This document shows positions 12,433 to 62,480 of a stretch of DNA of 64,000 nt, in pieces. The notes below the pieces were generated by a model. The model did not search any database and had not been told where the DNA came from. It was given only the letters and a program-made list of their open reading frames with translations. The position numbers were made by a program, and so were the translations under genes. The stretch lies in assembly GCF_056712565.1 (NCBI RefSeq), contig NZ_CM160072.1; one strand, written 5' to 3'. How positions within the stretch are numbered: the stretch's first letter is position 1; each line of letters begins with the position of its first letter.

Positions 12433-13568
12433 CAGAACACCCTTTTACCCTGACGCCAGACGTGGTCGATATGAATGTGGTTGCCCTTGCGATGCGCCAG
12501 CACCAGGTCGGCGCGTTTGCCCTCGCCAATCACCCCGCGATCCTGAAGATTAAGCGCCTGCGCCGGATTTTTAGTCACCAGCTTCACCGCCTGCGGCAGC
12601 GTAAAGCGGTTGCTCTCGTCATCGGCGACGCGAAATGCCGCATCGAGCAGGCTGGCGGGGTAGTAGTCGGAAGAGAGGATATCCAGCAGGCCAAGCTGTG
12701 CCAGTTCACTGGCCGCCACGTTGCCGGAGTGCGAACCGCCGCGCACGATATTCGGCGCGCCCATCAGTACGTTCATGCCATGCTTGCGCGAGGCTTCTGC
12801 CGCTTCGAACGTGGTGGGAAATTCGGCGATCACGCTGCCAAGCTGGTGGGATTCGGCAACGTGGGCGTGCGTGGCGTCATCGTGGCTGGCGAGGGCAATG
12901 TGTCGCGCGCGGCACATTGCGGCGATAGTTTCGCGATTAGGCTGTGACCAGCGTGCGGCAAGCGCCAGTTGCTCCTCTTCGTACTGTTGCATCTGCGCAT
13001 CGGTGAGCGAGTATTTGCCCTGATAATATTCACGATATTTTTCGCGGTTGGCGAACTGGCGCTGGCCCGGTGAGTGATCCATCAGCGACACCAGCGTTAC
13101 CAGTTCGCGCTGTACCAGTTTTTCAAACAGCGGCAGCGTGGTGTGATGCGGCAGTTCGCAGCGTAGGTGCAGACGGTGCTCGGCACGGTTGACGCCGCGT
13201 TTCTGCGTCTCTTCGATGGCGTTGATCATCTTCTCCAGATTCTCCAGCCGATCGCCGCCGTCGCGTACATCACCAATCGCCACGGCGTCCAGCACGGTGG
13301 TGATGCCGCTCGCCACCATCAGCGCGTCGTGGCTGCTCATCGCCGAGTGGGCTGGCCAGTCAACTTTCGGGCGCGGGGTGAAGAATTTATCCAGATTATC
13401 GGTATGCAGCTCAATCAGCCCCGGTAGCAGCCAGCCGCCTTCGCCGTCCATTGCTTCTGACAGGTGACTCTGGCTTTCGGCAAAGGCGCGGATTTCGCCG
13501 TCCTGCATCTCCAGAGAACCGTGTACCACCTCGTTTTCCAGCACCAGTTTGACGTTATTGATAATCAT
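12432..13568 (-). CDS. phnM: Amidohydrolase-family PhnM (RPnTP diphosphatase)
   Basis: 378-aa ORF; metal-dependent hydrolase motifs; operon position. Confidence 0.92.
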
Positions 13569-56149: not shown

Positions 56150-56720
56150 AATAGAAACTCATTCGAAAAGGGAATGATGCAATGATAATTGCCATAACCT
56201 ATTTTTTCCATCTATAGATGGGTTTATTTACATATTATTGGTGAATGTAGGACGTTATTTTTACCCGCCATAAACTTCTTGATTACATAGTATTACGAAA
56301 GGATTTTACTGAGAACCAGAAGTAATTTTCCTTACCATCAAAATTCATCATCTTTGCCAAAGAAAAATGTTCAGAAAATAATCCATGAAAAATTGTCCGG
56401 AGCGCTTACTATTTTAATGGATTGTTAGTCTTTGCATGAGCAAACGGACTGATACATTTCTCTTTGTTCTCATTCAGAAAATCTCATCAGTTGGCGTTCT
56501 GCCCGATGTTGTGCTTTATGGGTGCGTTACGCTCCTGATGACGTCATTTGACGTTCAACAGCATCACGGGGCCGCACGACATTTCACGTCAGTCAGCGCT
56601 ATAGCTCAGAAACAAATTTTCCCGAATTGGGATATGCCCGCAAATTGCTGGTGATGTGGGGAGAATCTGGTTGAGTTCGGTAGAATTGATTTGGCGGCAG
56701 GACGCTTAAATCGTGGCGTC

Positions 56721-56980: not shown

Positions 56981-57544
56981 TTATCCCCACCGGTCCCATC
57001 TCACCAGGTTGTTGATGATAATTTTATTACTAAATTTGCAGGGCGGCCTGGTTTTGTAATCCCGGCTCAGTCCTCTGAAGGCATTGATCTCCCCCCGCTC
57101 AAACAGCTCATCCTTATTCTGGTGCAGTTGTTTAAATGTGCTCAGAATGTTCGCTTCGCTGATTTCCGGAAAATTATCATATTCCAGTGACCTGAACCCT
57201 GTATCACGTGCCTGTGCATCCATTAAGGAAAACATCCCGGAACGCTGCATCAGGTTACGCCAGATTTCGCGCTCAAGATTCCGGGTAATGGCTTTCATTG
57301 CTGTTTCTGGTTTCTCCATCATCCAGCAACCACAGCGAAAATTCTGTTTCATCGCCCAGTCCGGGGCGGCTTTACCGCCAATATTTTCCGTCAGTGCTGA
57401 GATTTCTGTCAGTTGCCGGATAAGCGTGTCGATTTGCAGTAGTGTACTCTTTCGTACAGCCAGGATGTGTCTGATACTTGTGGAACAGATAACGGCTGTA
57501 TGCCCGTTGACCGCGTTCGGGTGGGGGATTGTGATATCTGACAT
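56981..57544 (-). CDS. Hypothetical island-terminal protein (possibly DUF4942-like)
   Basis: 187-aa ORF, last gene before the island boundary; family assignment uncertain. Confidence 0.45.
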   Translation of the reverse strand: MSDITIPHPNAVNGHTAVICSTSIRHILAVRKSTLLQIDTLIRQLTEISALTENIGGKAAPDWAMKQNFRCGCWMMEKPETAMKAITRNLEREIWRNLMQRSGMFSLMDAQARDTGFRSLEYDNFPEISEANILSTFKQLHQNKDELFERGEINAFRGLSRDYKTRPPCKFSNKIIINNLVRWDRWG

Positions 57545-57628
57545 TATGAGGTTTCCTTTCTGTTTATAAACGAAAACGCCAGCCCTGTTCAGGCTGGCGT
57601 CAGGAGAATGGAGTCTGGTGAGTGAGAT

Positions 57629-58051
57629 TCACCGGTTCTGGTGCATAAGTTGCAGTTGGTGCAGGGTACGGATATCCTCCCTGGCCTGTTCAATACAGGG
57701 CAGCAGTGCTGCCGAATCCGTTTTATCCTCATCGTTGTCGAAAATAATTCCGGACCCGCAGTCGATATTGTCCTGCAGCCACGCAATGAGGATATCCAGC
57801 GCTGTTTCAGTGGTTAATGGCATCACGCTCTGTATCACTGTATTGTCTTCCGGCAACTGATGAGGGCTGGCATAAGTTGCCGGTGTTTCGGTAGAGTCAC
57901 GGTCATCCACCACGCGGAGTGAATCACCGTTTTCAGCGGCCTTATTAATCAGTTCAGCGAGATTAACACCATCAATGTCAACGACAATTCGCCCCATATT
58001 CAGTGCCTGTACGTTAACGCTGTCGGCTTCCGGCGTCAGGGAAAGTTTCAT
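57629..58051 (-). CDS. YeeW-like protein
   Basis: 140-aa ORF immediately downstream of, and overlapping by 4 nt, the CbtA-like toxin gene. Confidence 0.6.
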   Translation of the reverse strand: MKLSLTPEADSVNVQALNMGRIVVDIDGVNLAELINKAAENGDSLRVVDDRDSTETPATYASPHQLPEDNTVIQSVMPLTTETALDILIAWLQDNIDCGSGIIFDNDEDKTDSAALLPCIEQAREDIRTLHQLQLMHQNR

Positions 58052-58425
58052 TGTTTCACCTCCGGGTGCTTACCCAGGATAATATTATTTACCGTTCTGT
58101 AATTGTCGCGGGTCATCAGGCCGGTCGCCCTGCGAGCCCGGAGGATATCAATACTGTTTATTAACTGAGAACGGGTACAGGCGCTGAATCCCGGCTGGTC
58201 GGTACGTACCAGTGCGTATTTTTCAACGAGAAAGTTCACCGCATCGCACAGTGAAATGCCTGCCTCAATATGCTGCTCAATCACACGTTCATCAGCGAAC
58301 GGTGTGTCATTCAGCGTAAGGCCGTAGTGCTGATCCAGCAGTCGGGTGAGCAGTGTCTGCCAGATTTCAACCGGAGACGGGCGTGAACTGGCCGCCTGCC
58401 CGGGTAATACAGGTAATGTTTTCAT
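58048..58425 (-). CDS. CbtA-family toxin (YeeV/YkfI/YpjF-like, type IV TA)
   Basis: 125-aa ORF MKTLPVLPGQAASSRPSPVEIWQTLLTRLLDQHYGLTLNDTPFADERVI... Confidence 0.8.
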   Translation of the reverse strand: MKTLPVLPGQAASSRPSPVEIWQTLLTRLLDQHYGLTLNDTPFADERVIEQHIEAGISLCDAVNFLVEKYALVRTDQPGFSACTRSQLINSIDILRARRATGLMTRDNYRTVNNIILGKHPEVKQ

Positions 58426-58513
58426 ACTGAAGATTTTCCTGATATGCAGAGATGAAAAATGGAAAAGTGGCGTGGTGAAAGCACCAGGCCGAGCAGAAGG
58501 TTATTCTGGAGAG

Positions 58514-58882
58514 TTACTTTTTCGTTTCGGGCGTCGGATAAACAGCCATATAAACGTAGCCACAACTGCCGAGGGTGTCGGCTTCGCAGGTCAGCCCTTT
58601 TGCATACAGCGTGACGGTATGCTGATGGCGGGGATTCAGTTCACCGCTGGTGAGCATGAGTTCCAGTTGTTTCATCAGCAGCGGAAAGGCCTGGTCCAGG
58701 TGGTACGAATCCGCGTCGCTGAACCGCCCTCTGATACCGGCGCGGTCGGCAAGGTAATGCAACCGGTTGCCTTCCTGTACCAGACGGGCACCAAAACAGG
58801 GCGTCACGGTGCAGGGCAGTCCCCACCAGGTACGGTCGTTATTGTCGTCGGGAAGCGTTGTCCCGGGGAGTGTGTCTGACAC
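58514..58882 (-). CDS. CbeA-family antitoxin (YeeU/YafW/YfjZ-like)
   Basis: 122-aa ORF MSDTLPGTTLPDDNNDRTWWGLPCTVTPCFGARLVQEGNRLHYLADRAGI..., immediately upstream of the toxin. Confidence 0.8.
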   Translation of the reverse strand: MSDTLPGTTLPDDNNDRTWWGLPCTVTPCFGARLVQEGNRLHYLADRAGIRGRFSDADSYHLDQAFPLLMKQLELMLTSGELNPRHQHTVTLYAKGLTCEADTLGSCGYVYMAVYPTPETKK

Positions 58883-58961: not shown

Positions 58962-59183
58962 TCAGTTCAGGGTGACGCTCATCAGCCGGACATACGGACC
59001 AAAACTGTCCTTCCGGCGTTCTGCAAACACGGCCAGCACACAGGGAATATCCTGTACTTCACGGCCGGTATATGTATCCGTGCTACCGTGCCAGCGGTAT
59101 TTACCGGTACAGAACGGAAAAAGACGGGATGCAGGATGCTGACGGTGAATACGCATGGCTTCACCACGGGTGATGATTTTCAT
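58962..59183 (-). CDS. DUF987 protein (YeeT-like)
   Basis: 73-aa ORF in the conserved position between the RadC-like and CbeA genes. Confidence 0.65.
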   Translation of the reverse strand: MKIITRGEAMRIHRQHPASRLFPFCTGKYRWHGSTDTYTGREVQDIPCVLAVFAERRKDSFGPYVRLMSVTLN

Positions 59184-59269: not shown

Positions 59270-59746
59270 TTAAAGCAGACCGTGTTCCGCAAAGGAGAAA
59301 ACCTGGCTGCCACCGACTATCAGATGGTCCGGCACCCGGATATCCACCAGGCCCAGTGCCTGTACCAGACGTTCCGTGATAAGGCGGTCTGCCTTGCTGG
59401 GTGTGACTTCACCGGACGGGTGATTGTGTGCCAGCACCACAGCAGCGGCATTGTGATACAGGGCGCGTTTAATCACTTCCCGGGGATGGACTTCCGTGCG
59501 GTTGATGGTGCCGGTGAAGAGGGTTTCACCGGCAATCAGCTGATTCTGGTTGTTCAGATACAGCACCCGGAACTCTTCCCGCTCCAGTCCCGCCATGTTC
59601 AGAATCAGCCATTCTCGTGCCGCACGGGTGGAGGTGAAGGCCACGCCGGGTTCATGAAGATGGCGGTCCAGGGTTTTCAGGGCCCGTTGAATGAGGCTGC
59701 GCTCACCGGGCGTCATTTCTCCGGGCAGAAAGGAAATCTGTTGCAT
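59270..59746 (-). CDS. RadC-like JAB-domain protein (YeeS/YkfG/YfjY-like)
   Basis: 158-aa ORF with JAMM/MPN motif HNHPSGEVTPSKAD. Confidence 0.8.
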   Translation of the reverse strand: MQQISFLPGEMTPGERSLIQRALKTLDRHLHEPGVAFTSTRAAREWLILNMAGLEREEFRVLYLNNQNQLIAGETLFTGTINRTEVHPREVIKRALYHNAAAVVLAHNHPSGEVTPSKADRLITERLVQALGLVDIRVPDHLIVGGSQVFSFAEHGLL

Positions 59747-62330: not shown

Positions 62331-62480
62331 GACTGACCTCTGAAATGAACGTACGGTGTTATTGATAATGATGGAAGGTATGCAGTGACTGTTCAGGAAA
62401 TGACGTAATAGCCATATATTTAGTTTTCTGTTCAACATATTGTCTCCATACCTGTCGGGACGGCTTTGGCAGGCCGGCGA

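Follow-up and report, generated by a model that had tools for sequence, protein, structure and literature searches.

The cbeA-cbtA pair and its surroundings

The locus lies on the minus strand of the window, by which we mean the whole stretch of 64,000 nucleotides that was analyzed. In the direction of transcription, a yeeS-like and a yeeT-like gene are followed by an antitoxin gene, a toxin gene, an open reading frame (ORF) of 140 codons, a terminator and a truncated gene:

59270-59746, minus strand: yeeS-like RadC/JAB gene, upstream
58962-59183, minus strand: yeeT-like DUF987 gene, upstream
58514-58882, minus strand: cbeA/yeeU-type type IV antitoxin gene, 122 aa, GTG start (Pfam, K-12 identity, YeeU structures, RefSeq)
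58426-58513, minus strand: antitoxin-toxin spacer, 88 nt, equal in length to that of K-12
58048-58425, minus strand: cbtA/yeeV cytoskeleton-binding toxin gene, 125 aa (Pfam CbtA_toxin, K-12 identity)
58059-58063, minus strand: GGAGG ribosome-binding site of the 140-aa ORF, within the final cbtA codons
58048-58051, minus strand: ATGA start/stop overlap of cbtA and the yeeW-like ORF, predicted translational coupling (direct reading)
57629-58051, minus strand: YeeW-type ORF, 140 aa, with DUF5983_N, linker and DUF957 in a single frame
57881-58042, minus strand: DUF5983_N domain, residues 4-57 (Pfam PF25638)
57827-57880, minus strand: linker, residues 58-75 (blastn against the full-length type)
57805-57818, minus strand: linker/DUF957-start junction, ATTAACCACTGAAA
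57629-57826, minus strand: DUF957 / AntiFam ANF00264-type domain, residues 76-140 (RefSeq WP_085949158.1)
57575-57601, minus strand: intrinsic terminator, 11-bp stem with 7 G-C pairs and a T-rich tail (terminator scan)
56981-57544, minus strand: DUF4942 gene, truncated to 187 of ~280 codons and carrying a separate promoter-like site; lies beside cadC where the island ends

The first-pass annotation had proposed a 122-aa antitoxin-like gene and a 125-aa toxin-like gene in the canonical antitoxin-then-toxin order. Both are present at the coordinates listed above; they share a strand, and the antitoxin gene immediately precedes the toxin gene, across the 88-nt spacer. The toxin matches Pfam CbtA_toxin (PF06755) over model positions 1-112 of 112 (E 4.8e-59). 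The antitoxin matches CbeA_antitoxin (PF06154, E 6.4e-55) as well as the solved YeeU structures 2H28 and 2INW (E ~1e-78), and its identical sequence is found in RefSeq as WP_001285610.1, a YeeU family antitoxin. None of the three proteins (toxin, antitoxin, YeeW) had a match in NCBIfam or PADLOC. The paralog, whose assignment had been left to alignment, is CbtA/YeeV-CbeA/YeeU, the nearest K-12 pair by identity: the toxin is 96% identical to K-12 CbtA, compared with 59% and 64% for YkfI and YpjF, and the antitoxin is 91% identical to K-12 CbeA, compared with 61-66% for YafW/YfjZ. In a comparison of island copies, cbtA had a dN/dS of 0.06-0.17. Residues R15 and F65, which CbtA needs for binding of MreB and FtsZ, respectively (PMC5624674), are both kept.

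Judged by sequence, the locus is the known CbtA/CbeA cell-shape toxin-antitoxin pair, represented by the CbtA/YeeV paralog. The pair is a textbook system, and its exact sequence is already annotated in many public genomes. In work by Masuda et al. from 2012, CbeA reportedly bundles FtsZ and MreB filaments instead of binding the toxin. The type IV label for CbeA/CbtA is that of PMC5371832, with which the RefSeq label agrees; for the present locus, we infer type IV action from identities of 91% (antitoxin) and 96% (toxin) with the K-12 counterparts.

A 2.4-kb stretch of the locus has matches in 4,965 of 5,426 complete E. coli genomes; S88, APEC O1, ATCC 11775 and other genomes contain DNA identical to it (100%), with the genes already annotated. 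Together with the Pfam matches, this shows that the three ORFs do not stand open by chance. The terminator begins 27 nt past the stop of the 140-aa ORF, and K-12 and two further loci, L006 and L007, have the conserved sequence as well; the transcription unit ends at this strong terminator. A full-length counterpart of the truncated DUF4942 gene was found in L006. An Rfam scan of the region from 54 to 64 kb gave no relevant match, the 88-nt spacer had no significant RNA structure (z -1.5), and neither a tRNA nor a pheU 3' end (attachment site) was found within the window. We read the locus as the CP4-44-type cbeA-cbtA type IV pair on a genomic island of an ExPEC-like E. coli, at the tRNA-distal end, where the island abuts cadC.

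The 140-codon frame downstream of cbtA

The start of the YeeW-like ORF had been placed over the end of the toxin gene at 58048-58051, and direct reading bears this out: the plus-strand TCAT corresponds to a minus-strand ATGA, in which the ATG of the ORF and the TGA of the toxin gene overlap by 4 nt. A GGAGG is located 7 nt ahead of the ATG (GGAGGTGAAACAATGA), and comparable G-rich sites lie ahead of the overlapping start in most loci of other species. Through this site and the ATGA overlap, translation of the 140-aa ORF would be coupled to that of cbtA.

The sole Pfam match in the ORF is DUF5983_N (PF25638, E 8.4e-28), at residues 4-57 and model positions 1-56 of 56; the Pfam-A release used has no DUF957 model. 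The PF19419 C module had no Pfam match in the ORF, its segment is missing in the DNA alignment, and a home-made C-module profile gave no significant match to the ORF (E 0.4-1.5) or the linker (E 0.18-1.5). Blastn similarity to full-length DUF5983 genes ends at about nt 149 of the ORF and restarts at about nt 233, and the linker lies in a stretch without detectable similarity to the matching part of these genes. The linker 'EDNTV' resembles the C-module 'ITEDDNTV', which suggested a leftover piece of that module; this was rejected on the non-significant profile scores of the linker. Residues 76-140 correspond, on identical DNA, to RefSeq WP_085949158.1, a separate 65-aa gene starting at M76, and the DUF957 half is ~88% identical to stand-alone DUF957 proteins. 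The ORF is a common E. coli yeeW variant, in which the DUF5983 N domain, a short linker and DUF957 share one frame. The first-pass annotation had described it as an intact YeeW, in contrast to a short remnant in K-12. K-12 yeeW is indeed short (64 aa), overlaps cbtA as in the window and is a decayed copy of the same 140-aa form; the description fails in that the ORF is without PF19419 and is not a full DUF5983 gene.

Structure prediction with AlphaFold2 gave the 140-aa monomer a mean pLDDT of 58. DUF957 was modeled as two helices (pLDDT ~77-93). In the N domain, pLDDT was <50 over residues 1-28 and 49-75, and block means over residues 1-57 were 32-62, both for YeeW alone and when tethered to CbtA. 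Foldseek found nothing with E <1 in the PDB and only DUF957 family members in AFDB50, a profile search of PDB sequences returned 0 matches, and PHROGs had matches for the C module, DUF987 and DUF4942 only. An AbrB/MazE-like antitoxin fold for the N domain, guessed from the sequence pattern, was unsupported by Pfam scans of 51 family members.

RefSeq/PGAP annotates identical DNA in S88 and ATCC 11775 as a DUF5983 pseudogene lacking its C-terminus plus a DUF957 gene. If so, the first 66 codons would be a dead DUF5983 remnant without the C module, the functional part would be the 65-aa DUF957 from M76 (57826) alone, and the open frame would be an accident of an in-frame rearrangement. Absence of the PF19419 module fits this division, as does the presence of DUF957 as its own gene in canonical loci; DUF957 codons are also more constrained than N-domain codons in several allele pairs, and K-12 demonstrates that further decay of the 140-aa form is possible. 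Against it stands the conservation of the frame, which has exactly 140 codons and no indels in five distinct alleles. These alleles diverge by dS of up to 0.48 and come from four or more chromosomal contexts. The dN/dS of the 140-aa ORF is 0.25-0.50, versus 0.7-3.1 in its two off-frames. Values for the N domain are mostly 0.29-0.63 and thus below the off-frame controls, reaching 0.63-0.81 in some pairs, each with few substitutions. Moreover, the strong GGAGG and the ATGA coupling are kept at the start of the 140-aa ORF, whereas M76 is preceded by a weak ribosome-binding site only, and single-ORF proteins composed of the N domain and DUF957 are known at 42-57% identity, one of them from Hafnia alvei. 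We consider the division into a remnant and a separate gene unlikely, while granting it some weight.

Because the 140 codons are kept in five alleles, the ribosome-binding site is strong, a terminator is present and the architecture recurs at 42-57% identity, the 140-aa ORF is probably a real coding frame. For the DUF957 part (codons 79-140), dN/dS is 0.14-0.47, while the off-frames of the entire ORF give 0.7-3.1; this supports real coding sequence, although AntiFam lists ANF00264 as spurious. The ORF would yield a single small protein with two domains, probably a dimer via DUF957, whose dimerization is taken from a preprint (10.64898/2026.06.09.728211). With regard to annotation, an ORF that RefSeq splits behaves as a single conserved coding frame.

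Distribution and possible role of the YeeW-type gene

Among 80 CbtA loci in other species, 66 are without a DUF5983_N gene. Where YeeW-type genes occur in these species, 13 of 14 carry the PF19419 C module, and the canonical gene joins the N domain and the C module in 158-168 aa, with a separate DUF957 gene present or absent. Complete E. coli genomes contain N-domain DNA at 12,555 places and C-module DNA at 7,745, and the C module is present in ~62% of E. coli copies. The sequence that follows the N domain varies: it may be the C module, DUF957, both, or nothing. A 96-nt probe across the linker/DUF957 junction (ATTAACCACTGAAA) reached a coverage of at least 80% in 915 of 5,426 genomes.

Relative to L006, the window is without exactly 280 nt, flanked by ATTAACCAC(T/A)GAAA repeats. 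An in-frame deletion between direct repeats from an L006-like progenitor was rejected, as the linker-C-module junction of L006 is found in 0 of 5,426 complete E. coli genomes. L006 has an additional cbtA fragment; it is a rare hybrid and therefore unusable as a progenitor. The N + DUF957 form may have originated by C-module loss or may be the older architecture.

Taken together, it is quite likely that the locus consists of a CP4-44-type pair and a yeeW variant that is translated as one two-domain protein and serves as an accessory island gene. The 140-aa gene would then be no required part of the toxin-antitoxin mechanism, since 66 of the 80 CbtA loci in other species are without it. CbtA toxicity and CbeA rescue were shown in K-12, and yeeW is mentioned in neither PMC5624674 nor PMC5371832; K-12 carries a truncated yeeW, yet the pair functions there. 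Our literature search revealed no function for YeeW or DUF5983 in the papers found.

Alternatively, the YeeW-like protein could be a working third component that modulates CbtA toxicity or release, e.g., as a trigger sensor or a further antidote whose amount is fixed relative to that of the toxin. Such a role would agree with the 4-nt overlap with cbtA, which K-12 shares with 11 of 14 loci of other species, across genera, and with the restriction of YeeW-type genes to long-tailed CbtA (125-127 aa) in 14 of 14 loci. In addition, DUF5983 is among the partners named in a survey of toxin-antitoxin systems in E. coli, where it invariably follows CbtA (PMC10790755), and the preprint cited above (10.64898/2026.06.09.728211) reports consistent linkage of DUF5983 and ANF00264 to cbtA/cbeA. 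The absence of the gene from most CbtA loci argues the other way, as do a K-12 pair that works with a 64-aa stub alone, the variable content after the N domain and the lack of PADLOC and NCBIfam matches. An AlphaFold2 model of a CbtA-(GGGGS)6-YeeW tandem, built from a partly paired alignment, had a pTM of 0.42 and an N-domain pLDDT of 30-53, with no confident N domain or toxin-YeeW packing, an outcome that says little either way. We regard a third-component role as rather improbable.

A more specific proposal is that long-tailed CbtA toxins have a true third partner in the N + DUF957 protein. This protein would be produced in fixed ratio with the toxin owing to the ATGA coupling, dimerize via DUF957, and tune CbtA activity or link CbtA to a trigger; some CbtA/CbeA loci would then be three-component systems. 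We give this proposal only a slim chance. Activation of type IV toxins is described as an open question (PMC5371832), and an action of a YeeW-type protein on CbtA, if true, would bear on how these toxins get switched on.

Comparison with named loci

The K-12 CP4-44 locus, yeeS-yeeT-cbeA(yeeU)-cbtA(yeeV)-yeeW, shares the gene order of the window, the 88-nt spacer, the cbtA/yeeW ATGA overlap and the terminator after yeeW. K-12 yeeW retains the N-linker-DUF957 junction found in the window; it differs by a GAA to TAA stop at codon 65 and a deletion of ~93 nt of the DUF957 part, whereas the frame in the window is open. The chromosomal sites also differ, as the window locus is beside cadC and that of K-12 is between yeeP/flu and yeeX-side genes. 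S88, APEC O1, ATCC 11775 and other ExPEC/APEC strains show no sequence difference over 2.4 kb, and only the split annotation sets them apart. Neighbors shared with S88-type loci are cadC, an integrase remnant, the truncated DUF4942 gene, and DUF987, JAB, antirestriction and DUF932 genes.

Loci with full-length DUF5983 (PF25638 + PF19419; 'Aec77' in some records) followed by DUF957 ('Aec78') have in common with the window the N domain, its place right after cbtA, the ATGA coupling and the DUF957 sequence. In contrast to these loci, the window is without the ~100-aa PF19419 module (also PHROG 5003), and DUF957 is fused in frame.

The two-domain architecture itself is shared by single-ORF N + DUF957 proteins of other lineages: P0126, P0131 and P0137, and A0ABD7QBV1 from Hafnia alvei. 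These are 42-57% identical to the window ORF, with shorter and unrelated linkers; N + DUF957 matches in AFDB, Hafnia alvei included, were at 50% and 42% identity. Two of the three single-ORF genes examined overlap the cbtA stop. Among these loci, L098 carries PF19419 as a gene of its own, located ahead of cbeA. Finally, YkfI/YafW (CP4-6) and YpjF/YfjZ (CP4-57) belong to the same Pfam families as the window pair and have the same antitoxin-then-toxin order. They differ from it in identity (59-66%), in toxin length (109-113 aa) and in a spacer of ~20 nt, and, unlike the window, they carry no yeeW-type gene downstream.

The CbtA/CbeA pair and its island

The ORFs at the locus, read from the sequence, and the accompanying signals are as follows.

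58514-58882, minus strand: antitoxin ORF, 122 aa, GTG start
Between the 58514-58882 and 58048-58425 ORFs, minus strand: antitoxin-toxin spacer, 88 nt, read from the sequence
58048-58425, minus strand: toxin ORF, 125 aa
58059-58063, minus strand: GGAGG site, 7 nt 5' of the ATG of the 140-aa ORF, within the final codons of the 125-aa ORF
58048-58051, minus strand: ATGA overlap of the ATG of the 140-aa ORF and the TGA of the 125-aa ORF (plus strand, TCAT), read from the sequence
57629-58051, minus strand: 140-aa ORF
57575-57601, minus strand: intrinsic terminator, 27 nt past the stop of the 140-aa ORF; 11-bp stem with 7 G-C pairs, T-rich tail
56981-57544, minus strand: DUF4942 gene, ending at codon 187 of about 280
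About 56409-56568: integrase remnant, between DUF4942 and cadC

When re-read on the minus strand, the three ORFs agreed in coordinates and description with the first-pass annotation, including the overlap of the YeeW-like ORF with the toxin end. The terminator sequence is kept in K-12 and two other loci.

The 125-aa protein matches the entire Pfam model CbtA_toxin (E 4.8e-59) and the 122-aa protein matches CbeA_antitoxin (E 6.4e-55); on identical DNA, RefSeq names a cytoskeleton-binding toxin CbtA and a YeeU family antitoxin. Of the three K-12 pairs, the closest match to the toxin is CbtA/YeeV (96% identity, with 59% for YkfI and 64% for YpjF) and the closest to the antitoxin is CbeA/YeeU (91%, with 61% for YafW and 66% for YfjZ). 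The earlier CbtA/CbeA-type assignment is thus borne out, and the alignment proposed with it identifies the paralog, by sequence, as CbtA/YeeV-CbeA/YeeU rather than YkfI/YafW or YpjF/YfjZ. Among solved structures, the antitoxin also has matches to YeeU (2H28 and 2INW, E about 1e-78). Both R15 and F65, whose substitutions in K-12 CbtA separately abolish MreB and FtsZ binding (PMC5624674), are kept in the toxin, and cbtA dN/dS between island copies is 0.06-0.17. Disrupting mutations, which the first-pass annotation had said would count against a working pair, were not indicated by Pfam, the K-12 comparison or dN/dS.

The gene order (GTPase, WYL, DUF905, DUF932, antirestriction, RadC/JAB, DUF987, cbeA, cbtA, yeeW-like, terminator, DUF4942) is the one usually seen in the distal module of CP4-type islands. 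This is a known locus with existing annotation; a 2.4-kb stretch spanning the pair has a match in 4,965 of 5,426 complete E. coli genomes and is 100% identical in S88, APEC O1, ATCC 11775 and many ExPEC/APEC strains. Since neither a tRNA nor the pheU 3' end was found in the 64-kb window, we regard this region as an eroded, tRNA-distal island edge. A sub-threshold match at 62437-62480 to Rfam c4-a1b1 (phage C4 antisense RNA targets; 18.6 bits against a gathering threshold of 46.7, E 0.58) is probably due to chance.

Composition and coding potential of the 140-codon frame

The sole Pfam match in the 140-aa ORF is DUF5983_N (residues 4-57, E 8.4e-28); the Pfam-A copy used has no DUF957 model. In database searches, the N half matched proteins that run on into the PF19419 module (the C module of full-length DUF5983), and the C half matched 65-95-aa proteins called DUF957 or 'Aec78'. 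By these matches, the ORF consists of the N domain, a linker and DUF957, lacks the C module, and is not an intact full-length DUF5983. Because the two halves match different families, RefSeq splits the ORF on identical DNA into a 'DUF5983 family protein, pseudogene, missing C-terminus' (57854-58051) and a 65-aa 'DUF957 domain-containing protein' (57629-57826, start M76). This reading, a pseudogene followed by a separate gene, appears unlikely given the following features of the frame.

Five distinct alleles, from the window and the comparison loci L088 (identical to L089), L090, L092 and L094, have exactly 140 codons and no indels; they stem from at least four chromosomal contexts and share 79-93% identity with the window protein. 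Nei-Gojobori dN/dS is 0.25-0.50 for the whole ORF, mostly 0.29-0.63 for the N domain and 0.14-0.47 for DUF957, with controls of 0.7-3.1 (two off-frames) and the low cbtA values. A strong ribosome-binding site and intact ATGA coupling serve the start of the 140-aa ORF; M76 is preceded by a weak site only. Among 1.84 billion cluster representatives searched, only 188 relatives came up, including P0131 and P0137, which are single-ORF N + DUF957 proteins (45-54% identity). The architecture also occurs in the relatives P0126 (53%) and P0108 (57%), and the AlphaFold database holds one further single-ORF example, from Hafnia alvei. The cbtA stop is again overlapped in two of three N + DUF957 loci looked up (L097, L098). 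Judged by these sequence features, the 140-codon frame is probably translated as a single two-domain protein.

The DUF957 family is listed as spurious in AntiFam (ANF00264), according to a 2026 preprint (bioRxiv 10.64898/2026.06.09.728211). The dN/dS of its codons here (57629-57826 and related loci) indicates real coding sequence. Our addition is a small one: the N + DUF957 frame, its AntiFam-spurious part included, carries a coding-sequence signature.

An AlphaFold2 monomer model had a mean pLDDT of 58, with the N domain mostly below 50 and DUF957 forming two helices at about 80; in a CbtA-linker-YeeW tandem model, N-domain pLDDT was 30-53 and pTM 0.42. The 140-aa protein had no fold match outside its family among solved structures or in the AlphaFold database, and no model in PADLOC or NCBIfam. 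One protein from the cluster-representative search, P0259 (281 aa), carries two tandem DUF957-like repeats instead of the usual single domain of 65-80 aa.

Linkage to cbtA in other species

We surveyed 80 CbtA loci, one genome per species. A DUF5983_N gene lies directly 3' of cbtA in 14, starting with a 4-nt overlap of the cbtA stop in 11 and 14 nt downstream in three. In thirteen the product is an N + C protein of 158-168 aa, and six of these genes are followed by a separate DUF957 gene and then DUF4942; N and DUF957 share one frame in none of the 14. The order in L008 (an E. coli-like contig) and L009 (E. albertii), namely cbtA, 162-aa DUF5983, DUF957 gene, terminator and DUF4942, is the canonical arrangement in close relatives. 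Enterobacterial cbeA-cbtA-DUF5983 islands were also seen under odd labels, 'uncultured Lachnospiraceae MAG' (L008, 95% toxin identity) and 'Chryseobacterium sp. 18061' (L028 and L029, 64%), likely reflecting contaminated or misbinned source assemblies. In L088 (E. coli, 2128-2538, also beside cadC), the cbtA 3' end is altered, giving a 136-aa product and an overlap with the yeeW start of 38 nt instead of 4.

The YeeW-type protein may take part in the toxin-antitoxin module, as suggested by coupling to cbtA kept across genera and by its gene occurring only beside long-tailed CbtA of 125-127 aa (14/14 loci), while 53 of the 66 loci lacking it have a toxin of at most 118 aa; the linkage has been remarked in two papers (PMC10790755; bioRxiv 10.64898/2026.06.09.728211). 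The toxin's C-terminal tail (L008-L087 survey) holds the ribosome-binding site for the downstream gene. A required role, however, is argued against by absence of the gene from 66 of 80 CbtA loci, by the variable content 3' of the N domain, and by K-12, where the toxicity of CbtA and its rescue by CbeA were demonstrated despite a mere yeeW stub; the papers reporting them never mention yeeW (PMC5624674, PMC5371832). We found no report of a function for YeeW/DUF5983 in the literature.

Origin of the fused form and comparison with K-12 yeeW

The window differs from comparison locus L006 by exactly 280 nt, flanked by ATTAACCAC(T/A)GAAA repeats, and taking out these 280 nt would place DUF957 in the N-domain frame. 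L006 was nevertheless rejected as ancestor of the fused form: no complete E. coli genome among the 5,426 has the linker-to-C-module junction of its DUF5983 gene, and the locus (2540-4703) has undergone rearrangement, with an 81-aa cbtA fragment present in addition to an intact cbtA. More likely, L006 descends from the fused form as a hybrid, probably through recombination of two types of island. By blastn, ORF nt 150-232 were not similar to the full-length type, and the linker resembled the start of the C module only at a non-significant level.

In the loci L098 and L099 (GCA_000496755.2; 2274-2594 in each), PF19419 is a 106-aa gene of its own, located between RadC and CbeA at the place that yeeT/DUF987 takes in E. 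coli, and the gene after cbtA is N + DUF957. Since PF19419 stands alone there and PHROG 5003 covers that module alone, the N domain, C module and DUF957 behave as shuffled modules. The 5,426 genomes hold N-domain DNA in 12,555 places, C-module DNA in 7,745 and DUF957 DNA in 13,070; by the first two counts, about 38% of copies are without the C module. A 96-nt probe over the window's linker/DUF957 junction was covered to at least 80% in 915 of these genomes.

K-12 yeeW has the same linker/DUF957 junction as the window; its codon 65 has changed from GAA to TAA, and its DUF957 part has in addition lost about 93 nt. With the junction kept and a stop and deletion added, it is a decayed copy of the window's form. 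The first-pass description of an intact YeeW beside a K-12 remnant therefore holds for the decay in K-12 and fails for the ORF as an intact full-length DUF5983.
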